Source: Chthonomonadales bacterium (lineage in GTDB: Bacteria; Armatimonadota; Chthonomonadetes; Chthonomonadales; CAJBBX01). Taken from it: a stretch of DNA of 64,000 nt. The translations under genes were made by a program, and so were the position numbers. Positions 5,927-46,236 of this stretch are shown piece by piece. The notes under the pieces were generated by a model. It did no database searches and was not told the origin of the DNA. It saw only the letters and a program-made list of their open reading frames with translations. Position 1 is the stretch's first letter. Every line of letters begins with the position of its first letter. The DNA lies in NCBI GenBank assembly GCA_037443035.1, contig JBBIPC010000007.1, forward strand, positions 32,001 through 96,000, given 5' to 3'.

Positions 5927-6823
5927 ATGGACCCGGCCCAGCCCAGCACCATGCGGGCCCTCTTGCGACGTCATGGACTACGCCCCAACAAACGGCTGGG
6001 CCAGCATTTCCTCTGCGATGGCAACATCCTGGATCGGATCGCTCAGGAGGCTCTAGCAGGTGACTCGTTACCCGTTGTGGAAATCGGCGCTGGGCCAGGT
6101 GCGCTCACGCTCCGGCTTGCCGCCAGGTCGCCTTCAGTTACAGCAGTGGAAGTGGACCAGTCCCTCCTGCCCATGCTCCGGGAGGTCGTCGCAGGGGTCT
6201 CTCAGGTCCGCGTCGTCCATGCGGACTTTCTCCGCCTTCCTACGCGCACCTTCCTAGACGAGTGCTTCGGTGGCGCGCCGGGGGTGGTCGCCGGCAACGT
6301 TCCCTATGGCATCACCGCACCCATCCTCGAACGCCTCTTCTCCTGCGGCGATCTGCTCGTACGCGCAGCTCTCCTCATCCAGACAGAAGTCGCCGACAGG
6401 CTCGGCGCTGCTCCAGGAACCCGCGAGTATGGTTCGCTGACCCTCTTCGCCGCCTACCACGGCCGCTTCCGACGCGTGCTATCCGTGCCAAAGCATCTCT
6501 TCTATCCACCCCCCGACGTCGGCAGCACCTTGGTGGTGTTCGAGCCAGGTTCAGAGCTGGCTCGCGACATCCTGAACCCCCAGATCTACTTTCGGCTCGT
6601 TCGCGCCGCTTTCAGTCAGCGCCGCAAGACCCTGGCCAACTCCCTTGCAGGAGCTGGCTTCGCGCCGAACGCACAGCTTGCGTGCGCTTGGCTGGAGACA
6701 TGCGGCATCGCTCCTGGCAGACGAGGCGAAACCCTTTCGCCCGAGGAGTACGGGAGACTGGCCAACTACCTTGCCGATCTGGGCTTTCCAGCTTCGGCAG
6801 GCGATAGCCGCACCGAGACGTAG
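5927..6823 (+). CDS. rsmA: 16S rRNA adenine dimethyltransferase RsmA/KsgA
   Basis: KRLGQHFL, VEIGAGPGALT, GNVPYGIT, FYPPPDV, AFSQRRKTL. Confidence 0.96.
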   Translation: MDPAQPSTMRALLRRHGLRPNKRLGQHFLCDGNILDRIAQEALAGDSLPVVEIGAGPGALTLRLAARSPSVTAVEVDQSLLPMLREVVAGVSQVRVVHADFLRLPTRTFLDECFGGAPGVVAGNVPYGITAPILERLFSCGDLLVRAALLIQTEVADRLGAAPGTREYGSLTLFAAYHGRFRRVLSVPKHLFYPPPDVGSTLVVFEPGSELARDILNPQIYFRLVRAAFSQRRKTLANSLAGAGFAPNAQLACAWLETCGIAPGRRGETLSPEEYGRLANYLADLGFPASAGDSRTET

Positions 6824-9246
6824 TGGACGACGGACGCCAGCTCGATCGTGCACGTCGGTCCGAGTCGCGTCACCCTGGCAGGTGCCACGTTGTCGGGGCT
6901 TACCGTGCTGGCATGGACCTGGCCTGACCACGGCAGATCCACGTGGATACGAACCGGACCACACGGACGTACCGTGTCCGTCGAAAGATCTATGGCCGTG
7001 TTGGCGCAATCCACATCGAGCGCTACTACCCCATCAGGCTTCCAGAGGGCGATCTCCAGCGTGCTTGGAGCCTCCGCCGAGACCAGCCTACGGCACGGAA
7101 GCCGGCCTATGAGGCTGGGAAGAAGCTCCTGCCGGCGCGATGACTGGAGGTAGTACTTCATTCCCAGGCCCTCTCCCAGGCTCACCCACCTACCCTTGCC
7201 GATCGTCCGCTCCGACGGCGATCCTTCTGAACCACCAGGGATCCCGAGCAGTCCTCTCTTCCTCGGCTCGAAGGCCCGTTCGACTCCGTGGCGACTTCCG
7301 CACGGTCCAGTCGTAACCAGGTAGCCGCCGTTGCGAACCCACCTCTCGATAGCCTGCAGCGCCTTATCGGAAAGGCACTCGACATCGGGGAGTATCAGCA
7401 CACGAATGCCACGTAGATGCTTCTCTTCGATACGCCAGTCCGGTAGCACTCGATACGGGAGATGAGCGTCCATTAGTGCGGTGCCCCAGCCCCAGTGCCC
7501 GAAGATGTTGGGTTGGCTGTCCATGTCCGGGAAACCGCCCGGGGCGAGTTCCCATAGCTGACAGTCCGGAGAGAATACGAGAGCGATGTCGGCGACGGGC
7601 CTGCGACGCACGAACCGTGTCTCGTGTGTGCGGAGGAAGTCGTTCCACCAGGCATGGCTCTGCAGCGTACCGGCAACACGCGGTTGACGAGGATCGCACA
7701 ACAGGACCGCACCGTTGGCGAATGCCTCGGCCATTAGCACTCGCCCGAGACCGGGCCGATTGGCCAGCCTACCAGCCTGGTTTTCCACGTAGTACCATGC
7801 CGCGCAATAGCGGGACGATTGATGCGCGAGCGCAGCCCGGTAGACCACAGCCATCTTCCCATCCGGCGGGAGCATGATGCCGCGCGTGCCGGTACCCATG
7901 TGCCAGCCCGGCGTCACCTCAGTGTGGACCATGTCGGTCCACTCCTCGCGGGCCCATCCAAGGCCGTAGAGGGGTATGTCGTTGCCACAGACGAGGAAAT
8001 CCGAGCATCCACCTTCGCGAGCACCCCTGTGGAGCGCACGATGGAGTGCTTTCAAGTCGCTTCGGGCCTGAATCTGCCTGCCGGCTCGATAGAGCCGCCA
8101 CAAAGCGTCTTCCTTCCATCGAGTGTCACGCCACGCCGGATCCGTCAGGTCGGCTGGGTCTGCAGCGCCATACATGCGCGCTCTGGCTCTCAACGACTCC
8201 CGGATATCGCCCGTTAGTGCCTCGCCCGCCTCGCGCACCGTCGCCTCAGGCGCGTCCCGAGACACATACTCGCGGAACCTGTGTACCGACCAGTCGCCAA
8301 ACGCATGGCGAATGGGCGGGTAGCCGAAGTTGTCCCAAGGCGACCAGTTGTCGCACCAGACACCGTGAACTCCTGCCTGTGCGATGGCGCGTGCCGAGGC
8401 CCGGGCATAGTCGCGCCAGAAGGGAGCCGACAGGTCCTTGTGGATGGAGATCACCCCGCACCAGACGTCCGTGCCGTCGGGGAGTCGTTCACCCTCGATC
8501 TCGTGGATGCCCGCCGTCGCCCGGAACAGCCCCTCGATCAGTGCGGGCGGCGCATCGCCACCCCGCGGTACACCGACAGCCGCGCCGAAGATAGGGTGCA
8601 GCTTCCCATTGATATCTTTCGAACCGCACGCATCCCAGATAGCTGCGTCCAGTGGCTCAGGAACGCCAGGTAGGCGGCCCGTGGCCGGTCTCCCATCGGG
8701 GTATCGCGGCGCCGGGATGCCTCTTGCGCGCAGCGTGTAGTGCGGCCGGAGATAATCCTGTTCCATTGCGCAGGCATGCACTCCGGCCCATCGGAACACG
8801 TTTCCATGCTCGAGTTTGCGATCGCCCCAGCACCAATGCGTGCGTACTGCCTTGGCCAACTCCGGATCATCGGACCGTAACGCGAACGAGCCGTCCTCCT
8901 TCCGAATTAGGGCGATGGCATAGACCATGCAATCGCCCACGCCCTCCACGTACGTCAGAATCCGTGCGCCGGCCTGTAGCACCTCTCTGGCGATGGAGCG
9001 CGTATCGAGGCAGGACAAGCGCTGGCACCAAGGTCCCCATGTGGGATCCGCGGCGATATTGCAGAGAAGCACGCGCGCACCTGACTTGTGGTACTCCTCC
9101 GGCGAAGCGGACTGTATCACCGTCGGCAGGATGTCCGACCAACGTGGAGACTGTTCGTCGGACCTTCGTCTCCACGGCAACGCGAGGGCGATGCTGCTGA
9201 TGAGTACTTCCCTGCGGGTTAGTTCCGGAGTGTCCTCCGATGGCAT
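6766..9246 (-). CDS. Tat-exported glycoside-hydrolase-like protein with a beta-galactosidase trimerization (GATase1-like) domain
   Basis: TRREVL twin-Arg signal; GVHGVWCDN barrel-like motif; C-terminal VLILPDVECLSD..IERWVRNGGYLVTTG. Start set at MPSEDT. Confidence 0.65.
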   Translation of the reverse strand: MPSEDTPELTRREVLISSIALALPWRRRSDEQSPRWSDILPTVIQSASPEEYHKSGARVLLCNIAADPTWGPWCQRLSCLDTRSIAREVLQAGARILTYVEGVGDCMVYAIALIRKEDGSFALRSDDPELAKAVRTHWCWGDRKLEHGNVFRWAGVHACAMEQDYLRPHYTLRARGIPAPRYPDGRPATGRLPGVPEPLDAAIWDACGSKDINGKLHPIFGAAVGVPRGGDAPPALIEGLFRATAGIHEIEGERLPDGTDVWCGVISIHKDLSAPFWRDYARASARAIAQAGVHGVWCDNWSPWDNFGYPPIRHAFGDWSVHRFREYVSRDAPEATVREAGEALTGDIRESLRARARMYGAADPADLTDPAWRDTRWKEDALWRLYRAGRQIQARSDLKALHRALHRGAREGGCSDFLVCGNDIPLYGLGWAREEWTDMVHTEVTPGWHMGTGTRGIMLPPDGKMAVVYRAALAHQSSRYCAAWYYVENQAGRLANRPGLGRVLMAEAFANGAVLLCDPRQPRVAGTLQSHAWWNDFLRTHETRFVRRRPVADIALVFSPDCQLWELAPGGFPDMDSQPNIFGHWGWGTALMDAHLPYRVLPDWRIEEKHLRGIRVLILPDVECLSDKALQAIERWVRNGGYLVTTGPCGSRHGVERAFEPRKRGLLGIPGGSEGSPSERTIGKGRWVSLGEGLGMKYYLQSSRRQELLPSLIGRLPCRRLVSAEAPSTLEIALWKPDGVVALDVDCANTAIDLSTDTVRPCGPVRIHVDLPWSGQVHASTVSPDNVAPARVTRLGPTCTIELASVVHYVSVRLSPAEAGKPRSAR

Positions 9247-9250
9247 GCCG

Positions 9251-9691
9251 TCACGTGGCTGGATCAGTATCGGAGTCGGTCTGAGCGGTCTCTTCGACGT
9301 TTGTTGCCTTCGCTTCCGGAACCTCCTCGGCGGCCTTCTCAGCATCCAGCGCTGCCTTGGCTGCCGCACCAATGCGCATGGTCAGAAGGTCCGCGTCCCT
9401 GGCTTCGCCAGCCACGATCTCCCCGTACTGGGCACCTCCATCTACTCCCTTCCACGCGAAGACCAGACGTGCGTTTTTCATGTGCGAAAGGAAGCCGTGG
9501 GCGTGGCCCACGACCTCTCGGGCGGCAGATGGGCTCGTCACGGCTATCGCTATGCGCTGATACCCCTGGGCGTCTGCTACTTCGTCAGCAGGAGGCTCGA
9601 CCAGGCGGCCCCGCAAGTGCGGCACCACCCTTTCTACGAAGGCGTCGCGGTCCCGGTCCGTCACGAAGTGCAAGGTCAGGATGAACGGCAT
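9251..9691 (-). CDS. Hypothetical protein with an acidic C-terminal tail
   Basis: 146 aa ORF packed between co-oriented genes (gaps of 4 and 9 bp); GAGGT RBS. Confidence 0.7.
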   Translation of the reverse strand: MPFILTLHFVTDRDRDAFVERVVPHLRGRLVEPPADEVADAQGYQRIAIAVTSPSAAREVVGHAHGFLSHMKNARLVFAWKGVDGGAQYGEIVAGEARDADLLTMRIGAAAKAALDAEKAAEEVPEAKATNVEETAQTDSDTDPAT

Positions 9692-9700
9692 GGCTACACC

Positions 9701-10882
9701 TCACTTCCAGAGTCGTTGTCCGGCCCTACCTGCCAGGCGTTCATGGGTATCCCTGAGCAGGGTCGGAATATCGAGTTTCAGCGGACAGCGTGGCAGACAC
9801 TCCCCGCAATTCGTGCAGAAGTCCCCCTGGGCACCTGGGAACCAGTGTCCCGCACCACCGGTCCGTTCGCCCGTGGCTGGATCCCGTCGGACGAACATGC
9901 CGTACCGGTACCGCCCGAACTCCACCATGTCGAACGCCACGGCAAGGTTCCGCAGGCGCAGGATCTCCGGTATATGCACATCTTCCGGGCATGGCAAGCA
10001 TGCGTGGCAGAAGCTGCAGTAGGTGGTGCCCAACGCATGCAGGGCATCTTCCAGTCGTCGAGCCACGGCGGAGGCTTGTTCCGGCAGCGGCCCCTCCTGG
10101 TCAGCACCGGTCAGATGCGCATCGAACTCTTGCGGCGTTGCGGCACCAACCGAGAGCGTGTGTACCTCCGGTTGGGCCAGGAGCCACCGCTGGTTGAACT
10201 CGATGGGCGTCAGGGGGTGGCAAAGTTCAGCCAGCTTCCGCGGAGGGTTGAAAAGCTGCCCACCTTTGTCGGTCGGTGAGATGATGAACACGCCCATGTC
10301 CATGGAGGCTGCAAGCTCCACAGCGGGTCTGTTCCGCTGGTTGACGAAATAGTAGTGCAGGTTCACGGCTTCGAACTCGCCCGTTCCGATGGCTCGTAGA
10401 ATCGTCTCCAGCGGCGCATGTGTAGCGAAACCCAGATGCCCGACCAGACCTTCGTCCATCGCCCGGCGGACCGCCGTCAGCGTGCCTTGGTGCTGGAGGG
10501 TGAGATCCAGGAGTTCGTCGGTATTGATGCCGTGAATATCCAGAATATCCACCCTATCCGTGTTGAGTCGGATCAGGGAATCATCGAGGGCAGCACGGAA
10601 CTCATCTGCCGTGGCAGCAGGCGCGATCTTCGTCGTCAGGAGGAACTCCTCGCGACGGATGACGCCTTCCCTAATCGCGCTTCCGATGAGCGCTTCGCTC
10701 GGTCCATATCCCCTCGCCGTCTCGATGTGGTTGATTCCCACATCCAGCGCCCGACGCAGCGTCGCGAACGCGCGCTCCCGATTCTCGTGCTCGGTCTCCT
10801 CCGGCATGGGCGGGATGCGCATGGCGCCGAATGTCAGTACGGTCGTATGGAGATTGGTCTTACCGAAGCGTCGTTTCTGCAT
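9701..10882 (-). CDS. Aldo/keto reductase with a C-terminal 4Fe-4S dicluster domain
   Basis: MQKRRFGKT..LTFGAMRIP, GINHIETARGYG.SE, CSFCHACLPCP and CTNCGECLPRCP. Confidence 0.92.
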   Translation of the reverse strand: MQKRRFGKTNLHTTVLTFGAMRIPPMPEETEHENRERAFATLRRALDVGINHIETARGYGPSEALIGSAIREGVIRREEFLLTTKIAPAATADEFRAALDDSLIRLNTDRVDILDIHGINTDELLDLTLQHQGTLTAVRRAMDEGLVGHLGFATHAPLETILRAIGTGEFEAVNLHYYFVNQRNRPAVELAASMDMGVFIISPTDKGGQLFNPPRKLAELCHPLTPIEFNQRWLLAQPEVHTLSVGAATPQEFDAHLTGADQEGPLPEQASAVARRLEDALHALGTTYCSFCHACLPCPEDVHIPEILRLRNLAVAFDMVEFGRYRYGMFVRRDPATGERTGGAGHWFPGAQGDFCTNCGECLPRCPLKLDIPTLLRDTHERLAGRAGQRLWK

Positions 10883-11021
10883 GGTGCTCCCTCGGCCCAT
10901 TCTAGCAGAGCCAACTTCCCCCGTCAATTCGCAGCCTGGGCGTCCTGCCATCGCCGAGCCGTGTCCGGCGTGGTGGTCCCTGGGCGCTCAGGTATCATAT
11001 CCACGCTAACGATTTCCGCCT

Positions 11022-12437
11022 ATGGTACCGAAACTCCTGCGCACGCTTGGCGATTACTGGTTCCCTATGGCCACTGCTATGGCGGCGGTGGTGGCACTCG
11101 GATGGTGGGTGCATGGTTACCTGTATCCGCCACCGGTTCCGGAGCGTGCACTCGGCATCGAGCAGTTCCGCACAAGGCCCGCGGCGCCGTCCCCGGCGGC
11201 CACCTCGTCGGCGACGAGTTTCAGCCGCCAACCTAGCCGTTTCGAGGCGCTCCCCGGCGTGTGGCCGTGGTTCCGAGGACCGATCCACGATAACGTCGTC
11301 CAGTCGGATGTCTCCATCTCCTTGGACTGGGGAGCCAACGGGCCACCTGTCGTCTGGAAGGTCGCCATGGGCGAAGGTTACGCGGCTCCGGCGGTGTGCA
11401 ATGGGCGAGTTTACGTGATAGATTACGATCAGGTTGGTCAGGCGGACGCTATCCGATGCTTTGCACTCTCCAATGGAGAAGAACTGTGGCGTCGCTCCTA
11501 TCCTGTGGTCGTCAAACGTAATCATGGTATGTCCCGTACCATCCCAGCGGTCTCCGACAAGCACGTCGTGACGCTGGGACCCAAGTGCCACCTGTCATGC
11601 ATGGATCCGCTCACAGGCAAACTGCTTTGGCAGCACGATCTTGTCGCAGAATACGGCGTAACCGTGCCGGAATGGTACGCAGGCCAGTGTCCGCTGCTCG
11701 ATGGGGACAGGGTTATCGTCGGCACGGGCGGCCAGGCGCTCATGATGGCGTTTCGTCTGGCCGACGGGAAGATCGCATGGCAGACTCCGAACCCACGCGG
11801 CTGGGTGATGACCCACTCGTCGGTTCTTCCGATCACCGTTGGCGGCAGGAGACAGTACGTATGGTGCGCCAGCGGAGGGGTTGTTGGGGTGGACGCATCC
11901 ACTGGGAAGGTGCTCTGGGAGAATCTGGACTGGGTTATCAGTACCGCGACGGTTCCTACGCCTGTAGACCTCGGCAGCGGCAGGTTGTTCCTGAGCGGAG
12001 GTTACAACTCCGGAGCCATGTTTCTGAAGATAACGGGCGCGGGTTCGACCTTTGCAGCAACCGTCGAGCAGCGGCTTCCCGCTTCCATCTTCGGTGCTGA
12101 ACAGCAAACACCGATTTTCTACAAGGGTCACATCTACGGCGTGAAAACGGGCGGTAAGATGGTATGCCTGGACCCAGCGGGTCGCCCTCTCTGGGACAGC
12201 GGAACGGATAGGTTCGGCCTGGGTCCCTATCTTGTCTGGAACGGTACCATATTGGCCATGAGCGATAGTGGGACCCTGAGCGCCATCGAAGCTACACCGA
12301 CGGGCTACAAGCGCCTAGCCCAGGCGAAGGTCTTGAACGGACCGGAGGCATGGGGGCCCATGGCGCCGGCCGGTACGCGTCTTCTCGTCCGGGACCTGAC
12401 GGAGATGCGCTGCTTGGAACTTGGGAAGTCTCGGTAG
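11022..12437 (+). CDS. Membrane-anchored PQQ-like (BamB-like) beta-propeller protein
   Basis: N-terminal TM; WPWFRGP; repeated G..LW docking motifs (GEELWR, GKLLWQ, GKIAWQ, GKVLWE). Confidence 0.88.
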   Translation: MVPKLLRTLGDYWFPMATAMAAVVALGWWVHGYLYPPPVPERALGIEQFRTRPAAPSPAATSSATSFSRQPSRFEALPGVWPWFRGPIHDNVVQSDVSISLDWGANGPPVVWKVAMGEGYAAPAVCNGRVYVIDYDQVGQADAIRCFALSNGEELWRRSYPVVVKRNHGMSRTIPAVSDKHVVTLGPKCHLSCMDPLTGKLLWQHDLVAEYGVTVPEWYAGQCPLLDGDRVIVGTGGQALMMAFRLADGKIAWQTPNPRGWVMTHSSVLPITVGGRRQYVWCASGGVVGVDASTGKVLWENLDWVISTATVPTPVDLGSGRLFLSGGYNSGAMFLKITGAGSTFAATVEQRLPASIFGAEQQTPIFYKGHIYGVKTGGKMVCLDPAGRPLWDSGTDRFGLGPYLVWNGTILAMSDSGTLSAIEATPTGYKRLAQAKVLNGPEAWGPMAPAGTRLLVRDLTEMRCLELGKSR

Positions 12438-12476
12438 AGGAGCATAACCCTGGCGCAGGGGAACGTATAGGACAGT

Positions 12477-13466
12477 ATGGGCAGGGAAGATCGAGATACG
12501 CGCACTACGCGACGGGACCTCTTCCGCGGCGGCGCCACGATTGTCGCCCTCTCCACGCTCGTGGCGGGATGCAGCGACAGACGTACGCGTTCGCATAGCG
12601 TGCACCCCGATGAAGATACGCCACCGCCCACGGATCCTGCCCTCGTCAAGTATCGGGAGAAAGCACGCCTGCCAATCACGGTACCGGAACCGAGGGGGAT
12701 CGCCTGGGATGGCGCTAGTTCGGTATGGGTCGTTGGCAACGGCGAAATGCAGCGCTCCCCCATCGAGGGGCCGTCCCCGGTGGCGGAGACGATCCGCTAT
12801 GACGGCCCAGGGGCGTGCGTGGCCTTCGACCATAAGAGGCTGCTTGTGGGCGTCGAAGGCAAGGTGCTCGAGGTACCGACGAGCTCATGGTTACCTCGTG
12901 TCTGGCTCGACGCCGGCCCCGATGCTGTTATCACATGTATCGCTGTAGGCAAAGATGCCATCTACCTCGCCGATGCCGGGCATCGCAGGATCGTGCGATG
13001 CACTCTGGATGGCAAGATACGCGGCTATCTCTGCGAGAAGGATGAGAAGCGAGGGTACGGCGGACTCATCGTCCCGAGCCCACACCTCGATGTCTGCGTG
13101 GACGCCGAAGGCGCAGTTCATGTCGCGAATCCGGGCAGTCATCGCATCGAGATCTACGACCCCGATGGTGCGCCCCGTTGGTCTTGGGGTGAGGAGTCCC
13201 AGGACATGCCTGGATTCTGCGGTTGCTGCAACCCAACGGACTTCGCACTCTTGCCGGACGGGCGCTATGTCACTGCCGAGAAAGGCATACCGCGCATCAA
13301 GATCTACAGCCCTGAAGGGCACTTCGAGTGTGTCGTGGCCGGTCCCGAGCGTCTCTCCCCGGGAGTGGTCGGCGTGGACGTCGCGGTCCTGGCCAACGGA
13401 GTGATCGCGGCTCTGGATAGGGGAATCGGTGCTGTTCGGCTCTTCGCACGGTCCGAGGGAGGATAG
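12477..13466 (+). CDS. Tat lipoprotein, NHL/six-bladed beta-propeller with an FCGCCNP motif
   Basis: TRRDLF...LVAGC signal; NHL-like repeats (IYLADAGHRRI, VHVANPGSHRIEIY, YVTAEKG..RIKIY). Confidence 0.82.
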   Translation: MGREDRDTRTTRRDLFRGGATIVALSTLVAGCSDRRTRSHSVHPDEDTPPPTDPALVKYREKARLPITVPEPRGIAWDGASSVWVVGNGEMQRSPIEGPSPVAETIRYDGPGACVAFDHKRLLVGVEGKVLEVPTSSWLPRVWLDAGPDAVITCIAVGKDAIYLADAGHRRIVRCTLDGKIRGYLCEKDEKRGYGGLIVPSPHLDVCVDAEGAVHVANPGSHRIEIYDPDGAPRWSWGEESQDMPGFCGCCNPTDFALLPDGRYVTAEKGIPRIKIYSPEGHFECVVAGPERLSPGVVGVDVAVLANGVIAALDRGIGAVRLFARSEGG

Positions 13467-13469
13467 CTC

Positions 13470-13682
13470 GTGACAGTAACGCGCAGGGAGTGGCTGAGGG
13501 CGTTGGCCCGACTTGGTGTCGCCGCCGGGGTCATTGGTGGCGCCGCTTGTCTCATGCACCGTCCCGAGGGATCGTGCACTGTGGCGCCGGATTGTGGCGA
13601 GTGCGCGGCGCTGAGAGGATGCCGCCTTCCCCAGGCAGAGATCGCGCGCAGGACACAGGCAATAGCCGGACGGTCCAGGTGA
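13470..13682 (+). CDS. Small Tat-signal Cys-rich protein
   Basis: TRREWL plus a hydrophobic stretch, then C-x5-C-x2-C-x5-C. Fills the gap in the operon. Confidence 0.72.
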   Translation: MTVTRREWLRALARLGVAAGVIGGAACLMHRPEGSCTVAPDCGECAALRGCRLPQAEIARRTQAIAGRSR

Positions 13683-13687
13683 GTGAC

Positions 13688-14251
13688 ATGACACAGCAGA
13701 AGGGACTCACACGTCGGGAGATCCTCGCGGGAGCCGCACGCGCTGGTACGGCCGCTGCCACTGGCGGGGTACTGGTGTCGCTGGCACGAGGCGCGCACTC
13801 GTCACCGACCGTCTGGCAGATCGATCCTGACAAGTGCATCCAATGCAACAAGTGCGCCACCGAGTGCGTGCTCACTCCGTCCGCGGTCAAGTGTGTCCAC
13901 GCCTACGCCATTTGCGGCTACTGCAAGCTATGCTTCGGGCTGCTCCGAGACAAGCGCACGGGCAATACCCTCACCGCTGAGAACAACCGGTGCCCGGTCG
14001 ACGCCATCGAGCGGCGATTCGTCGAGGACCCGTACTACGAGATGTACATCGATGAGCAACTCTGCATCGGTTGTGGCATCTGCGTCAAGGGGTGCAATCG
14101 CTTCGGCAACGGGTCCCTGTTCCTGCAGATACGCCATGACCGATGCGTCAACTGCAACGAGTGCGCCATAGCCCGCGTCTGCCCCTCCAATGCCTTTGTG
14201 CGGGTGCCAGCCTCTAGGCCGTATCTGCTCCGGAGCCAGCGCCGAGCGTGA
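13688..14251 (+). CDS. Tat-exported polyferredoxin (NapG/MauM-like)
   Basis: TRREIL signal; 17 Cys including CIQCNKCATEC, CGYCKLC, CIGCGICVKGC, CVNCNEC..CP. Confidence 0.88.
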   Translation: MTQQKGLTRREILAGAARAGTAAATGGVLVSLARGAHSSPTVWQIDPDKCIQCNKCATECVLTPSAVKCVHAYAICGYCKLCFGLLRDKRTGNTLTAENNRCPVDAIERRFVEDPYYEMYIDEQLCIGCGICVKGCNRFGNGSLFLQIRHDRCVNCNECAIARVCPSNAFVRVPASRPYLLRSQRRA

Positions 14252-15543
14252 GGAAGCAGGCATTCGTATCTATCGCCGCCGGCTGGTTCATCCTCCTGGC
14301 TGCGGCACTCGGGGCACAGGAACAGAAGAAGCAGCCGCCCCCCGAGTTCTCTTCTGGGTATTTCCCGCCTACGCCGACGACCCCTCAACCTCGGCTGGAC
14401 ACGTTCGCCGTCGTGGATGTCGTGGTGCTCTTCGTGGTACTGGTGCTGACGGTCTGGTTCGTATACCGCATGCGGTCCAGAACGATGGTCCGCCTCCTTG
14501 TTGTGTTTTCCGTGCTCTACTTCGGCTTCTACCGCCTGGGGTGCGTCTGCGCTGTGGGGAGCATCCAGAACGTCGCTCTGGCGATCGGGGACCGAAGCTA
14601 CACCCTTCCCGTGACAGTCGGCGCGTTCTTCGCCCTGCCCCTCGTCTTCGCGTTGTTGTATGGCCGCGTATTCTGCGCCGCCGCTTGTCCCCTTGGCGCC
14701 ATCCAGGACCTCGTGCTCCTTCGGCCCCGCCAGATCCATCGGGCGCTGAATGAGACTCTGGGTGTGGTCCCCTACCTCTACCTTGGCGCTGCCGTAGCCT
14801 TCGCCTGGACCGGCGCCGGGTTTGTCATCTGCCGGTACGACCCATTCATACCGTTCTATCGGCTGGGCGGCCACTGGGGCGTCATGGCGCTGGGAGCAGG
14901 TCTGCTCGTTCTCGGAACGGTCGTCGGTCGCCCCTACTGCCGTTACCTGTGCCCCTACAGCGTCCTTCTGCGCTGGACATCGGCGCTGTCCGCTCGGCGT
15001 GTGCGCATCACGCCCGGCGAGTGCCTTCACTGTCACCTCTGCGCCGATGAATGCCCCTTCGGCGCCATTCAACCTCCCACTCGTTTCGAGCCGGTATGGG
15101 ACCGGGGCGCGGCACGGCGGAAGCTGATCATAGCGCTAGTCTTGCTCCCCCTGCTGACCGTAGGGCTTGGTGTCCTAGGATACGCCGCAGCACCGGCCAT
15201 GGCCCGTGTGCATCGTGATATCCGCCTCGCCGAACGACTCTGGCTCGAGGAGACCGGCCGCGTTCGAGGCGTCACCGATGAGACCGAGGCATATCGCCAG
15301 CTTGCGTTGCCCAACACCGCGGCTTATCACCGGGCAGCAAGAGTGCGCCGCAAGTTCGATGTAGCAGGTGCCCTTCTTGGGTGCTGGTTCGGCCTTGTCA
15401 TCGGTGCTAGGCTGATCAGCGTTACGATCCGCCGCAATAGGGAGGACTACGAAGCGGATCGGAGTGGATGCGTTGCCTGCGCTCGCTGCTACATGTCCTG
15501 TCCGGTGGAGCACGAACGGTTGGGGCTGATCACGCTCGAATGA
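14248..15543 (+). CDS. Membrane 4Fe-4S protein (NapH/MauN/NosR-C-like)
   Basis: Multiple TMs; GRVFCAAACPLG and RPYCRYLCPY (CX3CP) motifs; CLHCHLCADECP and CVACARCYMSCP. Confidence 0.9.
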   Translation: MRKQAFVSIAAGWFILLAAALGAQEQKKQPPPEFSSGYFPPTPTTPQPRLDTFAVVDVVVLFVVLVLTVWFVYRMRSRTMVRLLVVFSVLYFGFYRLGCVCAVGSIQNVALAIGDRSYTLPVTVGAFFALPLVFALLYGRVFCAAACPLGAIQDLVLLRPRQIHRALNETLGVVPYLYLGAAVAFAWTGAGFVICRYDPFIPFYRLGGHWGVMALGAGLLVLGTVVGRPYCRYLCPYSVLLRWTSALSARRVRITPGECLHCHLCADECPFGAIQPPTRFEPVWDRGAARRKLIIALVLLPLLTVGLGVLGYAAAPAMARVHRDIRLAERLWLEETGRVRGVTDETEAYRQLALPNTAAYHRAARVRRKFDVAGALLGCWFGLVIGARLISVTIRRNREDYEADRSGCVACARCYMSCPVEHERLGLITLE

Positions 15544-17516
15544 CGACACACAGCGAGACATTCCAGGAGCGTTCGCGTGCTGCGACAGCAGCGGAGTGGA
15601 CGGCGCGCGTGGCGCTTGTGTACAGCGCCGTCGTCCTCGTCCTCATGCTCATCAACGCTGTGGCTGCACGTTCTGCACATCCCATCGAAGTTGCGTCCCT
15701 CGAGGCGCTGCAGCATGATCTGACTGTTCGCCCCGATGACGAGGGGCTCCGGCGACGCGTCAGGCAGGAGGACAAACGCATTCGGCAGGAGTACCTCCGC
15801 CACCGGGATTTCGCAGTGCGAGGGGCATGGCTTCTGCTCGCTGGTATTGCTACGTTCCTTGCCGCCGGCGAATACGCGCGGCGGTTCCAGACTCCAATGC
15901 CCACGCCCCGTCCTGACGCCGCCAGCCGCGCACGTGCGGCGGCCGACGCCACGTTCCGGGCGCTGGTAGCCGTCGGAGGCGTCCTGGCCGGAGCACTCCT
16001 TACCCTGACGGTCCTCTCCAGGCATGACACGGCGGCCGAGTACGTCCGCGCGGCGAGCCGTTCTCCCACGCAAGCCGGTGGGATGATGCCCGGTGGTTTG
16101 CCTCCGACGACCGGCCAGCAGGCAGCCACGGGTCTACCTGTCGCTACCGGTCCCGAACTTGCCAGCCCAGTCAGCGGATCCACAGGTATGCCAACGCCGC
16201 GACCTTCTGGTGGTAGGCTATCCGGTCCCGGTACCGTCATGATGCCTCTGCAGGGGCCGTCCAAGCGCCCGACACCGGCGGGCGGCGTTGCTTCGGAACT
16301 ACTGCGGCGCCCCCTGCCGAAGGTCGAGCCTTCTACGGCGCCTGGTTGGGAACGGAACTGGCCGAGGTTTCGTGGACCGGCGGGCACTGGAATCGCGTTT
16401 GGCGCAAATCCGCCGCTCCAGTGGAACGGTCAGACCGGCGAAGGCATCCTCTGGAAGACGAAGCTCCCTCTGCCAGGCTGGAACTCTCCCATCGTGTGGG
16501 AAGGACGCATCATCTGCAGCGGTGCGGACGAGACCCATCGAGAAGTCTACTGTCTCGACCTCTCCACGGGCGCCATCGTCTGGAAGACGACTGTACCATC
16601 TTCGGGTGGCGCCGCTCCGAAAGTCCAGGCCGACACCGGCTATGCGCCATCCACGCTCGCCACCGACGGAGCACGCATCGTGGCTGTCTTCGTCAATGGA
16701 GATGTGGCATGCCTGGACATGAGCGGCAAGCTGCTCTGGAAGCGCAGTTTCGGTCCGATGGAAAACCCCTACGGACATGCGTCGTCCCCCGTCGTCTTCG
16801 GATCGGGGGTAATCCTCCAGCTCGACCAGGGACACGGCGCCGAGGACGGCAAGTCCGCGCTCCTGGCCCTCGACCTTGTCAGCGGGAAGACGGTCTGGCA
16901 GATCCAGCGACCCGTGGGCGCATCGTGGAGCACGCCCATCCTGATCACGGTGAACGGCAAGGAGCAGCTCGTCACTACCGCGAACCCCTGGGTCATCGCC
17001 TATGATCCCCACGACGGTACCGAGCTGTGGCGCGCCGAGTGTCTCGGCGGAGAAGTGGCCGTATCTCCCGTGACTGCGCAAGGCTATGTCGTTGTGGCGA
17101 ACCAGGGATCGAACTCGGCTGCCATCAGGCCCGACGGCCGGGGCGACGTCAGCAAGTTGGCCGTGGCGTGGACGGCGGGCGACGGTCTGCCTGACATTGT
17201 CAGTCCTCTTGCGTTCCAGGATCTCACCCTGCTGGTCACAACGGAAGGCTTCCTGACCTGCATCGAGACGAAGACTGGCAAGAGAGTCTGGGAAGAAGAC
17301 CTGGGCGTCACCGTGCGCGCGTCGCCTGTCCTGGCCGGCGGCCGAGTCTACCTGCTCGATGCCAGCGGCACGATGCACATTCTCCAACCCGGCCGGACGT
17401 TCAAACTCATAGGACGGTGTCCCTTGGGTGAAGCTGCCAATGCTACGCCTGCGTTCGTGGCCGATCGGATCGTAATCCGCACCCGGCAACACATCGTCTG
17501 CGTGGGCTCCCGATGA
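15540..17516 (+). CDS. Membrane protein (3 TM plus Pro/Gly linker) with a C-terminal PQQ-like beta-propeller
   Basis: NWPRFRGP, WNSPIVW, repeated GK.LW motifs. ATGA overlap with the upstream gene. Confidence 0.88.
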   Translation: MTTHSETFQERSRAATAAEWTARVALVYSAVVLVLMLINAVAARSAHPIEVASLEALQHDLTVRPDDEGLRRRVRQEDKRIRQEYLRHRDFAVRGAWLLLAGIATFLAAGEYARRFQTPMPTPRPDAASRARAAADATFRALVAVGGVLAGALLTLTVLSRHDTAAEYVRAASRSPTQAGGMMPGGLPPTTGQQAATGLPVATGPELASPVSGSTGMPTPRPSGGRLSGPGTVMMPLQGPSKRPTPAGGVASELLRRPLPKVEPSTAPGWERNWPRFRGPAGTGIAFGANPPLQWNGQTGEGILWKTKLPLPGWNSPIVWEGRIICSGADETHREVYCLDLSTGAIVWKTTVPSSGGAAPKVQADTGYAPSTLATDGARIVAVFVNGDVACLDMSGKLLWKRSFGPMENPYGHASSPVVFGSGVILQLDQGHGAEDGKSALLALDLVSGKTVWQIQRPVGASWSTPILITVNGKEQLVTTANPWVIAYDPHDGTELWRAECLGGEVAVSPVTAQGYVVVANQGSNSAAIRPDGRGDVSKLAVAWTAGDGLPDIVSPLAFQDLTLLVTTEGFLTCIETKTGKRVWEEDLGVTVRASPVLAGGRVYLLDASGTMHILQPGRTFKLIGRCPLGEAANATPAFVADRIVIRTRQHIVCVGSR

Positions 17517-20011
17517 TCCGCCTACTTGGACGTAGAGGGCGTCCCGACCGGACCATCGGCAGCGCCGGTGGCTCCAGACACATGGCACCGGCACCGGAAC
17601 CGCCGCCACCTGGCAAGTTCGTCGAAGACTTGGTCGGAGAACTCGGTCGAGGTCAGGAAGCTCTCATACCTATCCTCCAGGCCATCCAGAAACGCTACCG
17701 GTATCTACCCGAGGAGGCTCTCCATCGGATCTGCGAACTGACGGATATCACGCCAACAGACCTCATGGGTGCGGCAACCTTCTATTCTCAGTTCCGGCTC
17801 GAGCCTGTGGGTCGCCACATCGTCAGCGTCTGCCACGGCACGGCCTGCCACGTGAAGGGTTCCGAGCTTGTGGACGATGGTCTGCGGCGTTACCTCCGCT
17901 TAGGAGAGGGTCAGGACACCGACCGAGATGGCGTTTTCACCGTGAAGAGAGTCGCATGCGTTGGGTGCTGCACTCTCGCTCCCGTGATACAGATTGACGG
18001 CCTCACCTACGGCCACATGAGCTCGGAGACCGTCGGCAAAGCCCTCGAGGACTACCTCTCGCTGGAGCGACGCGGCGAAGTACCTTCGGCCACGAGCGAC
18101 ACCTACGGCGGCAACATGGGCGAGGTTCGGCTTGCCCTGGACTCCTGCTGCATCGCTGGCGGGACCATGCGCGTCCGGGATGCCGTCGCTAAGGCCATCG
18201 CCGACGTTGGCGCACCCGCCGTTGTTCGGGGTATCTCCTGCAGCGGGCTGTGTCACCAGATCCCGCTCGTGGAAGTAGCAGTACCGGGCAGGCCCATCGT
18301 TACCTACGCCCGATTCGATCCTGCCGACGCAGAAGGTCTGGTCAGGCGCCACTTTCGCCCCACTCGGTTCTCGGACCGCTTGAGAGCGACTGCCACCACT
18401 CTGCTGGATGGCTTGCTGGCAGACGATGCGCGGCAGCCTCTGACACGCTACGCACTGGACACACGCGATCCCATGCTCTGCGCGTATCTCGGTCCCCAGA
18501 AGCGGATCGCCATGGAGCATGCCGGTGAGTATCCGCCCTTGGACCTGGAAGCCTACGCGAGTCGAGGAGGTTTCAGCGCTCTTCGCCGATGCGTCGCTGC
18601 AATGACTCCGGAACAGGTGATCGGCGAGGTGAAGAGGAGCGGTCTGCGGGGCCGCGGCGGAGCCGGTTTTCCAACGGGTCTGAAGTGGGAGAAGGTACGC
18701 GCCGCAGGTGGTACACCCAAGTACGTCATCTGCAACGGCGACGAGGGCGATCCTGGCGCATTCATGGATCGGATGCTGCTGGAGTCGTTCCCGTTCCGCG
18801 TGCTGGAGGGTATTGCCATCGCGGCTTATGCAGTAGGTGCAGAAGAGGGTGTGCTGTATATACGCGCCGAGTACCCTTACGCCGTGGAGAGAATCCGTCG
18901 TGCCATCGCCATGTGCGAGGAGCGAGGTCTGTTCCATCTTGGGTCGGACGGCCGACCTGCTAAGAGCACGACGAGCGACGGGCACGGCAGCTTTCGCCTC
19001 CGGCTCCGGGTCATGGAGGGGGCAGGCGCGTTCGTCTGCGGGGAGGAGACCGCCCTGATCGCTTCCATTGAGGGGCGGCGCGGCGTACCGACGCTGCGTC
19101 CCCCGTACCCGTCCGAGAGCGGGCTATGGGGAAAGCCCACGTCCATCAACAACGTGGAGACGTACGCCCTTGTACCGTGGATACTCCGCAACGGCGCAGA
19201 GGCGTTCGCCGCCATCGGCACCGAGAACAGCAAGGGGACCAAGGTGTTCGCACTGGCAGGGAAGGTGCGCCGCGGCGGGTTGATCGAGGTGCCCATGGGA
19301 GTAACGATCCGCACCATCGTGGAAGATATCGGCGGAGGGGTACCCGAGGGTTCCCACTTCAAAGCGGTGCAGATCGGTGGCCCATCCGGCGGATGCCTTC
19401 CGGCGAGCCTGGCGGACACGCCCGTGGACTACGATGCCCTCCGGTCCGTGGGGACCATCATGGGTTCCGGCGGCATGGTGGTTCTCGACGATCGTACCTG
19501 CATGGTGGACATCGCCCGCTATTTCCTCGCGTTCACGCAAGCGGAGTCCTGCGGAAAGTGCACGTTCTGCCGCCTGGGAACGAAGCGCATGCTGGAGATC
19601 CTCGAACGCATGTGCACAGGCCGAGGCCGTCGCGGAGATATCGAGAAGCTGGAGGAGCTGAGCCGGATGGTCCAGCAAGGCAGCCTCTGTGGCCTCGGTC
19701 AGACAGCGCCTAACCCAGTCCTGACCGGCATCCGGTACTTCCGCGAGGAGTACGAAGCCCATCTCGATGGCAAGTGTCCGGCCGGTGCCTGCAAGGAGCT
19801 GATCCGATACGAGATCACCGAGGACTGCATCGGCTGTACGCTCTGCGCGCAGCAGTGCCCGGTCGATGCCATCGCGTTGCGGCCATTCGCTCGCCACGTG
19901 ATCGCAGACGAGAAGTGCACGCGATGCGACACCTGCCGGAAGCAGTGCCCCGAGGACGCCATTGTCATTCTGTCCGGCGGCGAACGTGTCGTGACGGGCA
20001 GGAGAGGGTGA
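17513..20011 (+). CDS. Fused NuoE-NuoF (HydC-HydB-like) NADH-binding flavo-Fe-S subunit
   Basis: NuoE VCHGTACHVKG/ACVGCC; second thioredoxin-like 2Fe-2S domain; LRGRGGAGFPTG, NGDEGDPGAFMDR, GAFVCGEETAL, GGPSGG, ESCGKCTFCR, CPAGAC; two C-terminal 4Fe-4S motifs. Confidence 0.93.
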   Translation: MIRLLGRRGRPDRTIGSAGGSRHMAPAPEPPPPGKFVEDLVGELGRGQEALIPILQAIQKRYRYLPEEALHRICELTDITPTDLMGAATFYSQFRLEPVGRHIVSVCHGTACHVKGSELVDDGLRRYLRLGEGQDTDRDGVFTVKRVACVGCCTLAPVIQIDGLTYGHMSSETVGKALEDYLSLERRGEVPSATSDTYGGNMGEVRLALDSCCIAGGTMRVRDAVAKAIADVGAPAVVRGISCSGLCHQIPLVEVAVPGRPIVTYARFDPADAEGLVRRHFRPTRFSDRLRATATTLLDGLLADDARQPLTRYALDTRDPMLCAYLGPQKRIAMEHAGEYPPLDLEAYASRGGFSALRRCVAAMTPEQVIGEVKRSGLRGRGGAGFPTGLKWEKVRAAGGTPKYVICNGDEGDPGAFMDRMLLESFPFRVLEGIAIAAYAVGAEEGVLYIRAEYPYAVERIRRAIAMCEERGLFHLGSDGRPAKSTTSDGHGSFRLRLRVMEGAGAFVCGEETALIASIEGRRGVPTLRPPYPSESGLWGKPTSINNVETYALVPWILRNGAEAFAAIGTENSKGTKVFALAGKVRRGGLIEVPMGVTIRTIVEDIGGGVPEGSHFKAVQIGGPSGGCLPASLADTPVDYDALRSVGTIMGSGGMVVLDDRTCMVDIARYFLAFTQAESCGKCTFCRLGTKRMLEILERMCTGRGRRGDIEKLEELSRMVQQGSLCGLGQTAPNPVLTGIRYFREEYEAHLDGKCPAGACKELIRYEITEDCIGCTLCAQQCPVDAIALRPFARHVIADEKCTRCDTCRKQCPEDAIVILSGGERVVTGRRG

Positions 20012-20024
20012 GGGAGGAGATCCA

Positions 20025-21593
20025 ATGCCTGATCTCACCATAGACGGGCGGACGGTGCACGCACCGGAAGGAGCGACCATCCTCGAGGCGGCGGCATTGG
20101 CCGACATCGAGATACCGACTCTCTGCTACCTGCCGCACAAGCCTCCCCAGACCTCGTGTTTCCTCTGCGTAGTCCGCGTAGAGGGGACGTCGCGCCTCCT
20201 ACCGGCGTGCGCCACGCGTGTATCCGACGGCATGGTAGTCCACAACGAGTGCGACGAAGTGCGCGCCGCCAGGCGGACGGCCATCGAATTGCTGTTGAGC
20301 GATCACCTGGGCGACTGTGTGGGGCCATGCCAAAGCGTCTGTCCAGCCCATATGGACATCCCACAGATGATGGCCTTGACCGCTCGAGGACGCTTCAGGG
20401 AAGCGCTCATCGTTGTCAAGGAGGCGATACCCCTGCCCGCGGTTCTCGGCCGGATATGCCCTGAGTTATGCGAGAAGGGGTGCCGTCGGGCATCGTACGA
20501 CGCTCCGCTCTCCGTCTGCCTAACGAAACGATTCGTGGCGGACTACGACCTGGCGAGCGACCATCCCTACATGCCGGAGTGCGCTCCTCCGACGGGCAAG
20601 CGGGTAGCTGTCATCGGCTCCGGTCCCGCAGGGCTGTCGGCGGCGTATTACCTGAGGCGTGCTGGGCATGCGTGTGTCGTATTCGATGAGCATGAAGCCC
20701 TCGGAGGCATGCTCCGGTACGGCGTGTCTCGTGACGTTCTACCAGAGCAGGTCCTGGACAACGAGATCGAGATTATCCGGCGTATGGGGGTCGTCTTCGT
20801 TCCCCGTACGCGCATCGGCCGTGACGCTTCGCTGCTGGAGATGAAACGCGAGTATGATGCGATCCTTCTTGCGGTAGGAGACGTGCGAGACGGAAGGAAC
20901 GAGTGGGCATCCCTCGCCTTCGGTCCTCAAGGACTGCAGGTGGATCGTGCTTCGATGATGACGTCCATGGAGGGCGTCTTCGCAGCGGGTGGCGCACTGC
21001 TACCCCTGAAGCACGCGGTCCGGGCCGTGGCGGACGGACGCGCGGCTGCATATGCTATCAGCGAGTACCTCGTGGGATCACCTGTAGGTACGGTAGATCC
21101 CGGTTTCAGTGTGCATATCGGAAAGCTGGACGCGCAGGAGGTTCTCCCGTTTCTCCGCTTCGGCACGCCGGACGGCCGCCAGTCACCGTCTAGCCAGGAC
21201 GGCGGTTTCACTCCCGAGGAGGTCCAGCGGGAATCTCGCCGGTGCCTGCAATGTGCATGTTCGGCCGCATCCCGCTGCCGTCTCAGGATGTTCGCTCAGC
21301 GGTACGACGCCCAGCCGCTTCGCTACAGCGGTGAGAGACGCGGTATGGGCATAGACGACAGCCACCCGGACATCCTCTTCGATTCGGGCAAGTGCATTGC
21401 GTGCGGCATTTGTGTGCGCATCGCAGCAGAGGCGCACGAGAAGCTCGGCATAGGCTTCGTAGGCAGAGGATTCGGGGTACGAACCGCAGCACCCTTCCAC
21501 GCCGCCATGGTGGACGGGCTACGAGAGGTGGCCCTCGCCTGCGCCGATGCTTGCCCCACAGGAGCCCTAGTGCGCCGAACGACGCTCCCCTAG
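20025..21593 (+). CDS. NuoG/HydA-N-terminal 2Fe-2S plus shortened GltD-like FAD domain plus 4Fe-4S protein
   Basis: IPTLC..SCFLC..PAC; CVGPCQSVCP; RICPELCEKGC; VIGSGPAGL; RCLQCAC; CIACGIC..CPTGAL. Confidence 0.88.
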   Translation: MPDLTIDGRTVHAPEGATILEAAALADIEIPTLCYLPHKPPQTSCFLCVVRVEGTSRLLPACATRVSDGMVVHNECDEVRAARRTAIELLLSDHLGDCVGPCQSVCPAHMDIPQMMALTARGRFREALIVVKEAIPLPAVLGRICPELCEKGCRRASYDAPLSVCLTKRFVADYDLASDHPYMPECAPPTGKRVAVIGSGPAGLSAAYYLRRAGHACVVFDEHEALGGMLRYGVSRDVLPEQVLDNEIEIIRRMGVVFVPRTRIGRDASLLEMKREYDAILLAVGDVRDGRNEWASLAFGPQGLQVDRASMMTSMEGVFAAGGALLPLKHAVRAVADGRAAAYAISEYLVGSPVGTVDPGFSVHIGKLDAQEVLPFLRFGTPDGRQSPSSQDGGFTPEEVQRESRRCLQCACSAASRCRLRMFAQRYDAQPLRYSGERRGMGIDDSHPDILFDSGKCIACGICVRIAAEAHEKLGIGFVGRGFGVRTAAPFHAAMVDGLREVALACADACPTGALVRRTTLP

Positions 21594-24978: not shown

Positions 24979-25052
24979 TCGGGGTGGGCGGACTTGAACC
25001 GCCGACCTCGCAGTCCCGAACCGCGCGCTCTACCAAGCTGAGCCACACCCCG
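24979..25052 (-). tRNA. tRNA-Pro(CGG), CCA not encoded
   Basis: CGGGGTGTGGCTCAGCTTGGTAGAGCGCGCGGTTCGGGACTGCGAGGTCGGCGGTTCAAGTCCGCCCACCCCGA folds as a cloverleaf with anticodon loop TT-CGG-GA. Confidence 0.97.
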
Positions 25053-45693: not shown

Positions 45694-45701
45694 CCTTGCC
45701 C

Positions 45702-46226: not shown

Positions 46227-46236
46227 TACCCGATCC

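Follow-up and report, generated by a model that had tools for sequence, protein, structure and literature searches.

The 64,000-nucleotide stretch of DNA analysed here (hereafter the window) comes from a Chthonomonadales bacterium (assembly GCA_037443035.1, contig JBBIPC010000007.1, positions 32,001-96,000, forward strand) and carries, at positions 11022..21593, an operon of eight open reading frames (ORFs) which combines a cytoplasmic redox pair of the Bfu family with membrane-bound and exported iron-sulfur (Fe-S) and beta-propeller proteins. All eight lie on the + strand with successive gaps of 39, 3, 5, -4, -4, -4 and 13 bp, the overlaps being one GTGA followed by two ATGA, so that the co-oriented, tightly packed arrangement noted in a preliminary description of this DNA is borne out by the coordinates; their GC content at third codon positions (GC3) is 0.68-0.78. 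In order, the operon encodes propeller A, an N-terminally anchored eight-bladed PQQ_2/BamB-like protein (11022..12437; Pfam, AlphaFold and fold search); an NHL six-bladed beta-propeller with a twin-arginine motif and a lipobox in this genome (12477..13466; alignment, AlphaFold and fold search); a 70-aa twin-arginine protein with four cysteines and one hydrophobic stretch (13470..13682; translation and alignment); a polyferredoxin exported by the twin-arginine translocation (Tat) pathway, with a NapG/MauM-like role (13688..14251; motif and alignment); a 431-aa membrane Fe-S protein of the PF12801 (NapH/NosR/RdhC-like) family (14248..15543; Pfam, NCBIfam and hydropathy); propeller B, in which three predicted transmembrane (TM) segments and a linker are joined to a PQQ_2/BamB-like propeller (15540..17516; Pfam and hydropathy); an 832-aa BfuC-BfuB (NuoE-NuoF/NfnC-NfnB-like) fusion (17513..20011; PDB matches and ligand motifs); and a truncated NfnA/StnC-like BfuA of 522 aa (20025..21593; PDB alignment and motif scan). 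Pfam and NCBIfam agree with the domain assignments made earlier. A promoter scan gave a single site, on the - strand at 10927, which is not above chance (1 vs 2.2 +/- 1.5), and the terminator scan found none. The host genome, 100% complete by markers, encodes TatC and one full-strength copy of each operon gene, and the nearest named homologues of the membrane Fe-S protein are labelled Armatimonadota. Relatives were collected by scanning species-representative genomes with the gene for this membrane protein, which returned at least 589 confirmed relatives among 600 stretches, of which the best 80 were kept; the residue counts given below are drawn from these 80 loci, 18 stretches chosen from 55 phylum relatives and the window itself, at least one locus being present twice.

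The last two genes belong to the Bfu family by every sequence feature tested. The top PDB matches of the BfuC-BfuB fusion are the B subunits of NfnABC/StnABC (9bov_B, E 7.5e-205; 8oh5_B; 9n5u_B). Comparison with Supplementary Figs 9-10 of PMC9304861 placed its motifs for the NADH and flavin mononucleotide (FMN) site, GAFMDR in 73/75 and GAF(V/I)C in 75/75 complete homologues, with the rows above the line in Supplementary Fig. 10, i.e. the bifurcating type. The C1 motif is present in all 75, with C107, C112, C149 and C153 at 100%; the B1/B2 ligands C680, C683, C686, C726, C663, H750, C755 and C760 are kept in 97-100% and C701 in 83%; and all eight C-terminal cysteines of the B3/B4 ferredoxin domain are at 100%. 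Residues of the B5 site (C212/C213, C243, C247 and H280) are kept at 91-100%, from which [2Fe-2S] cannot be told from Zn, the metal at this site in Csac. Judged by these ligands, the fusion retains an intact NAD(H)/FMN/ferredoxin core, and there is good reason to expect that the pair couples NAD(H) and ferredoxin.

BfuA, previously labelled HydA/NfnA-like, is a homologue of NfnA/StnC with the NADPH domain deleted, and not of HydA. Its best PDB match, 9bov_A (E 4.2e-112), aligns in two blocks (query 4-286 with chain positions 6-287, and query 276-518 with 425-674 of 1178), and the gap relative to 9bov_A, 9n5u_A and 8oh5_C removes the NADPH-binding domain of ~140-150 residues; the Fdh/NuoG-like tail is also missing, the protein ending at residue 522, which matches chain position 674 of 1178. 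This truncation is not damage in one genome, because the NADPH Rossmann motif is found in 0/69 complete homologues, with the host's own GltD as a positive control. The spacing of the two flavin adenine dinucleotide (FAD) motifs is 110-144 residues in the 57 homologues in which both were found, against 290 in the host GltD. The earlier statement that the operon encodes neither a catalytic subunit nor an NADPH site is thus confirmed. BfuA keeps the ligands of A1, A2, A3, A6 and A7 and the FAD-type half of the Rossmann domain, and has lost A4; the A6/A7 ligands, in the NfnL-like domain, are C106 (67/69), C145 (68/69), C149 (68/69) and K168 (57/69), and 17/69 still have the acidic residue of the second FAD motif. 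In minimal forms of 349-367 aa (L055:15330-16379, L077:15340-16443 and L123), the whole FAD domain is gone and the A1/A2/A3 ligands remain, which indicates that what is conserved functionally is the Fe-S wire rather than a flavin active site. In NfnABC, according to the available part of PMC11829005, electrons run from FAD via A7, A6, A3, A2 and A1 to the bifurcation site. To all appearances in these alignments, selection preserves a wire of the NfnABC type with its substrate end removed.

The membrane Fe-S protein matches PF12801 with 50.2 bits (cut-off 22) and is predicted by hydropathy to contain a signal-like segment and seven further hydrophobic or TM segments. It has two CX3CP motifs, whose cysteines (C143, C147, C231 and C235) are kept in 55/55 aligned homologues, and a 2x[4Fe-4S] domain interrupted by a TM hairpin; in total, 15 cysteines and D198 are invariant in the same 55. 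By the positive-inside rule, loop charges assign the eight ferredoxin-type cysteines and the two CX3CP motifs to the inner face and C99, C101, C195 and D198 to the outer face, and we infer that this outer-face set and the CX3CP set each form metal centres. A PDB search gave matches limited to the ferredoxin motifs, and no solved PF12801 structure was found. The protein scores 28.4 bits against the NapH/MauN model TIGR02163 (cut-off 213), and 47 against the NosR model (cut-off 1000 bits), of which only model residues 409-649 are matched; no FMN_bind Pfam match was obtained, i.e. the extracytoplasmic FMN-binding domain of NosR/RdhC is missing. No Nap, Nos or Mau enzyme occurs among the eight genes or in the recurrent neighbour clusters examined. 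At L067:9923-12985, a single 1020-aa ORF encodes both propeller B and the membrane Fe-S protein as a fusion.

On the exported side, a Tat signal plus four [4Fe-4S] clusters is the hallmark of NapG/MauM, and the polyferredoxin has both features: a twin arginine in 94/94 homologues with F or L at +2, and 16 cysteines at 100%, corresponding to four predicted [4Fe-4S] clusters; its Pfam and NCBIfam matches are to generic ferredoxin models only. The 70-aa protein carries the motif C-x5-C-x2-C-x5-C-x2-P, which we take to be near the cluster motif of endonuclease III, with the four cysteines kept at 97-100% in 60 sequences; a scan of 65 loci showed the motif in 46, in 42 of them together with an RRxF-like motif, and a Pfam search of one homologue returned no family. 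It is a candidate single Fe-S or metal shuttle. The NHL protein is modelled as a confident six-bladed propeller (AlphaFold pLDDT 88.9; best folds are NHL domains, Z 29.9), and its vicinal cysteines C250-C251 are invariant in two alignments (86/86 and 64/64 homologues); T266, E268, K269, R273 and K275 are also invariant. Its description as a Tat lipoprotein holds for this genome, in which the signal is real, but not for the family, in which the Tat motif occurs in 8/64 and the lipobox in 10/64 aligned homologues, start sites having been called mechanically; the idea that the protein is a cofactor-loaded Tat substrate is weakened by the 8/64.

Propeller A (Pfam PQQ_2, E 1e-26) is predicted to be compact and eight-bladed, with an N-terminal helix at 4-34 (pLDDT 91.4). 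It contains a conserved, family-specific pocket comprising H168, R172, W218, Y219, Q222, C223, H265, Y328, W444 and D458 (73 and 55 sequences), and is a candidate substrate-binding or catalytic subunit. Its best folds are YxaL (Z 35.0), Rv3035 (32.7), BamB (32.7) and tetrathionate hydrolase (31.4), with dehydrogenases dependent on pyrroloquinoline quinone (PQQ) at 27.8. The invariant residues of propeller A and the NHL protein lie, by DSSP, just before the first strand of the blades or between the second and third strands, positions that form the top face of propellers. Against the BamB equivalog model propellers A and B score 51.8 and 75.9 bits (cut-off 285.2), and against the PQQ alcohol dehydrogenase model TIGR03075 19.4 and 38.4 bits (cut-off 480). 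A pqqC search of the host genome gave no match, as did the control genomes, and an ESM Atlas search returned automatically named clusters only.

The grouping of the eight genes is far beyond chance. Partner counts were made over the best 80 loci from other species, using those with enough flank, and describe the membrane-gene subfamily only, since the loci were selected for their match to that gene. The polyferredoxin accompanies it in 73/73 loci, the NHL protein in 64/65, propeller A in 51/56, propeller B in 65/66, the BfuC-BfuB fusion in 60/63 and BfuA in 50/54; where both flanks are complete (n=42), all six tested partners are found in 36 loci and the same order and strand in 34. The fully flanked loci bear labels from at least nine phylum-level groups, and among the labels of the 80 are Planctomycetota, Armatimonadota, Bacteroidota, Verrucomicrobiota, KSB1, Calditrichota, Poribacteria, Aminicenantes, Aegiribacteria and Desulfobacteraceae; the carriers include the cultured Draconibacterium orientale (L066). 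In a phylum sample of 301 genomes, with a match threshold of E 1e-120 for BfuA, the membrane gene was found in 56 and the truncated BfuA in 51, with 50 shared, and the co-occurrence holds where the operon is split (G099 and G167). The predicted co-conservation of the propeller and Tat genes with the NuoEF pair is therefore upheld, by gene order in 34/42 loci and by genome co-occurrence in 50/56, and the eight genes very likely form one functional unit. Genes resembling NAD(P)-binding epimerases or short-chain dehydrogenases/reductases occur inside or beside the operon in some loci (L002:15582-16493 and L014:11355-12431).

Beyond the eight genes, the recurrent neighbours in the 80 loci are an FtsX-type double permease (32), an ATP-binding cassette (ABC) ATPase cluster (30, of which two are unrelated ATPases), a family 4 glycosyltransferase (GT4; 23) and a further propeller. 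In the host genome, an ABC ATPase, an 1100-aa double FtsX permease and propeller C are encoded together at C5:120068-125342 (L081:8069-13343), and GT4 at C16:20206-21492 (L082:8207-9493), both unlinked to the operon; many other genomes have orthologues of the ABC/FtsX/propeller C genes before or after the operon. In GT4, C15 and C18, which make up an N-terminal CxxC, are invariant and C164 is nearly so (39 sequences), a possible metal site that would be unusual for GT4. An FtsX or GT4 orthologue is present in 53/56 genomes with the membrane gene, which itself occurs in 3/220 genomes with neither, related genomes not being independent. This link points to an undescribed envelope metabolite, and we rate as about even the chance that the redox operon serves the substrate of GT4 and the ABC transporter.

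A second set of genes, the ligase module, stands beside the GT4/ABC core at L101:6635-19335, L103, L112, L113 and L117, mostly in genomes without the redox operon. It comprises an AMP-binding ligase, a small membrane protein, a hotdog thioesterase, a HemN-like radical S-adenosylmethionine (SAM) protein, an iron-containing alcohol dehydrogenase, an aldehyde dehydrogenase and one Pfam-less protein, presumably chorismate-lyase-like; at L117 it includes a flavin halogenase-like gene. A chorismate lyase-like protein and a brominase have been proposed to make dibromo-anisic acid in a planctomycete, according to the part of 10.1101/723874 that was available. The ligase module is found in 20/301 genomes, all with GT4 or FtsX; 16 are without the membrane gene and 4 have both (again with kin not independent), and strict mutual exclusion of the two modules is rejected on account of these 4. 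A search of the host genome did not find the module. Five genomes without the membrane gene gave no NHL orthologue (one weak match of 45.8 bits) and paralogue-level matches only for propeller A. Terpenoid genes flank 5-8 of the 80 loci; a divergent cluster of ferredoxin, radical SAM, squalene-hopene-cyclase-like, DUF116-polyprenyl synthase and prenyltransferase genes is seen at L002:495-6450, L004, L091, L093, L096 and L100. An obligatory terpenoid link is rejected for the host, in which the ferredoxin, radical SAM, squalene-hopene-cyclase-like and prenyltransferase queries had no tblastn match at 1e-8 and the DUF116 fusion matched a plain polyprenyl synthase only.

Among known systems, the closest are the Nfn-Bfu enzymes (NfnABC/StnABC from Caldicellulosiruptor, 9bov, Sporomusa, 8oh5, and Thermococcus, 9n5u), as described in the available parts of PMC9304861 and PMC11829005. 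The operon shares with them the BfuBC core, the NADH/FMN motifs, B1-B4 and C1, as well as A1, A2, A3 and the inserted NfnL-like domain with A6/A7 in BfuA. It differs in that BfuC is fused to BfuB, the FAD domain is dispensable in three homologues, BfuA is without the NADPH domain (~140-150 residues), the Fdh-like tail (~500 residues) and A4, and membrane and exported subunits are co-encoded. The predicted Nuo-Bfu and Mbh-Bfu complexes are similar in that a BfuABC module is co-encoded with membrane subunits (available part of PMC9304861), whereas our operon has no antiporter-like, NuoH/B/D/I or NiFe subunits and instead has the PF12801 protein, the Tat Fe-S proteins and the propellers. Of the 12 activity types that Supplementary Table 1 of PMC9304861 lists for Bfu enzymes, it fits none, and the main text of that paper contains neither 'propeller' nor 'periplasm'; the supplement gives no accessions, and such fusions may stand unlabelled in its tree. 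NapGH, NosGH, MauMN, NosR and RdhC, as covered by the available parts of PMC8238504 and PMC5928378, have in common with the operon two CX3CP motifs, a C-terminal 2x[4Fe-4S] domain and an adjacent Tat polyferredoxin; in contrast, the operon protein has no FMN-binding domain, its ferredoxin domain is split by the TM hairpin and it has extra outer-face cysteines, and the eight genes include a dedicated NADH/ferredoxin module and no Nap, Nos, Mau or Rdh enzyme. Flavinylation marks the NapH-like systems of PMC8238504, and the part of that source available mentions no cluster like the eight-gene operon.

Propeller A shares its eight-bladed fold with PQQ quinoproteins, tetrathionate hydrolase and BamB/YxaL/Rv3035, but is compact with its own invariant pocket, and propellers A and B fall far below the BamB and PQQ alcohol dehydrogenase cut-offs. 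DsbD/CcdA export reductant across the membrane by thiol relays fed by NADPH and thioredoxin; the likeness lies in proposed function alone, cytoplasmic reducing power reaching a periplasmic dithiol, and the operon would use an Fe-S wire fed by NADH and ferredoxin instead. The HydB fusion of 10.64898/2026.10.06.756941 is, from the available part of that source, a different system. As far as sequence defines membership, the operon lies outside Nfn-Bfu, NapH, NosR/RdhC, BamB and the PQQ dehydrogenases by the membership criteria of each. The literature searched, with most subscription journals outside the search, held no description of the eight-gene system and, as the preliminary description had supposed, no characterised complex of this composition. 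The operon represents a real and widespread Bfu-type system that is apparently undescribed.

We propose, as the best reading and with about an even chance of its being right, that electrons from NADH and ferredoxin are merged in the cytoplasm and exported via a haem-free Fe-S wire to the propellers for a reductive step in the envelope. Since the NADPH site is lost and a membrane protein with a cytoplasmic ferredoxin domain is co-encoded, the most economical interpretation is that electrons of intermediate potential exit across the membrane. In the Bfu core, NADH and reduced ferredoxin would both supply electrons, which would be merged to about -400 mV; Nfn-Bfu makes NADPH from the same two donors at about -380 mV (Table 1 in the available part of PMC9304861). 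BfuA would pass the electrons not to NADP(H) but to the membrane protein, at its cytoplasmic 2x[4Fe-4S] domain, and they would cross the membrane via the CX3CP centre and then the outer-face C99/C101/C195/D198 centre. From there they may pass to the Tat-exported four-cluster polyferredoxin, to the small Cys4 protein, and finally to the vicinal cysteines of the NHL protein and the pocket of propeller A. The outcome would be the reduction of an envelope metabolite, as part of biosynthesis, maturation or re-reduction and not of respiration; this metabolite may be glycosylated and moved by the co-inherited GT4, FtsX-type ABC transporter and propeller C. We infer the metal centres, contacts, flow direction and substrate of this wire; outward flow is probable, and a direct wire somewhat more plausible than a path via quinone. 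The host encodes its own complex I, haem-copper oxidase, formate dehydrogenase (FDH) and NiFe enzymes. A wider proposal, which we regard as tentative and rather doubtful, is that the operon represents a new Bfu class, confurcating NADH and ferredoxin and exporting NADPH-grade or stronger electrons by a haem- and quinone-free wire, and that it and the ligase set are, for the most part, alternative partner modules of a GT4/FtsX-ABC/propeller core; the core would make or handle a glycosylated metabolite or cofactor of the envelope, which may be the ligand of the uncharacterised PQQ-like propellers that abound in these phyla.

Several observations weigh against an export wire. Six of the 56 phylum genomes with the membrane gene have no BfuA match at E 1e-120. 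Among five genomes with BfuA-less loci, two have BfuA elsewhere, one has a 360-aa form without the FAD domain and two have none; these last, G301 (L012) and G303 (L068), whose completeness is unstated, carry the membrane and periplasmic half, and neither BfuA nor the BfuC-BfuB fusion was found in them. The chief argument that the Bfu pair is not obligatorily linked to the membrane half comes from these two, and at L012 propeller B adjoins the ABC gene. In 28 genomes GT4 or FtsX occurs without the membrane gene, 12 of them also lacking the ligase module, so the GT4/ABC core does not need the wire. Fold searches gave generic six- and eight-bladed propellers and no enzyme identity, and no known catalytic cofactor motif was found in propeller A or the NHL propeller. 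The host carries menaquinone genes of the MqnA/D family, and characterised NapH is described as a quinol dehydrogenase, with no metal function given to CX3CP in the available part of PMC5928378. The preliminary description had read the operon as a conduit between cytoplasmic NADH/ferredoxin and an extracytoplasmic reaction at the propellers; this is supported in part, with co-conservation, the placing of the FDH and NiFe enzymes in operons of their own and the missing NADPH site in favour, and the two genomes in which the Bfu pair was not found against.

These two genomes, together with the host's MqnA/D-family genes and the family role of NapH and NosR (available parts of PMC5928378 and PMC8238504), would fit an arrangement in which the halves are linked by quinone, the membrane protein oxidising menaquinol in NapH-like fashion for the polyferredoxin and the Bfu pair feeding the quinone pool, as has been proposed for Nuo-Bfu, or activating or maturing the membrane protein. 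A ferredoxin-coupled core, with B3/B4 kept, is however unnecessary for menaquinone reduction, BfuA is present in 50/56 membrane-gene genomes, and the invariant outer-face cysteine set offers a quinone-free path; we consider this arrangement unlikely. Electrons might also flow inwards: propeller A or the NHL protein would draw them, by oxidation, from a low-potential periplasmic substrate (a reduced sulfur compound, an aldose or an aldehyde), and the Bfu pair would bifurcate them to NAD+ and ferredoxin, as Wor-Bfu does with aldehydes. Bfu enzymes are reversible (available part of PMC9304861), the fold of propeller A is like that of tetrathionate hydrolase (Z 31.4) and PQQ dehydrogenases (Z 27.8), and the host has many sugar-use genes. 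Yet no Mo/W, haem or quinone-cofactor motif was found, the potential of PQQ is too positive for NAD reduction, and the co-inherited GT4 and FtsX-type ABC transporter suggest biosynthesis or trafficking, which makes inward flow improbable in our view.

That the Bfu pair serves a hydrogenase or FDH encoded elsewhere, the propeller genes being a separate system, is very unlikely. Possible partners exist: an FdhF-type gene lies at window positions 53119-55146, and large subunits of NiFe type are encoded at window positions 47148-48827 and at C4 and C9. The FDH operon, however, includes dedicated electron-transfer and group-4-hydrogenase-like genes, and the C9 NiFe enzyme likewise comes with NuoE/F/G-like genes of its own; a search of the host genome for FeFe-hydrogenase was negative (the control being positive), the membrane gene is present in 50/51 BfuA genomes and A4 is lost from BfuA. 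The preliminary description had named a partnership of the NuoEF protein with a hydrogenase or FDH encoded elsewhere as what would refute it; the FDH and NiFe enzymes of the host lie in operons of their own. The operon at window positions 45151-55146 (-) encodes the FdhF-type FDH, sulfhydrogenase beta/gamma-like subunits, a maturation protease and group-4-hydrogenase/Nuo-like membrane subunits, and C9:7841-12747 holds a second NuoE/F/G-like set with a NiFe large subunit, of Hox-like type. An ordinary or decaying NfnABC transhydrogenase beside unrelated envelope genes can be almost wholly discounted: NfnABC/StnABC are the closest solved relatives and only 17/69 homologues keep the acidic residue of the second FAD motif, but the identical deletion occurs in all 69, the Fe-S ligands are invariant and gene order is conserved across phyla.

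The proposed export of electrons to the propellers would have several implications. Characterised Bfu enzymes, in the literature searched and as far as the sources available describe them, each end in a cytoplasmic catalytic site, which in this operon has been removed by a conserved deletion. The carriers are many, mostly uncultured bacteria, in which the system probably delivers strong reducing power to a cell-envelope reaction. A direct wire would give low-potential electrons an unusual way into the periplasm, would provide a natural minimal Bfu model with two chains (FAD being absent in some species), and would offer a means of studying electron movement by PF12801 membrane proteins. With the marker gene in at least 589 species-representative stretches, including that of the cultured Draconibacterium orientale, the system is testable.

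Upstream of the operon, 70 bp away and divergent from it, the window encodes an aldo/keto reductase with a C-terminal Fe-S motif (9701-10951, -), which was rejected as a member of the system, 0/80 related loci having it. Another - strand ORF of the window encodes an 868-aa protein (6766-9372) with an RR motif near its likely start and, as its only match, a weak one to the trimerisation domain of glycoside hydrolase family 42 (GH42). The single Rfam match is a tRNA gene at window positions 24979-25052 (-).

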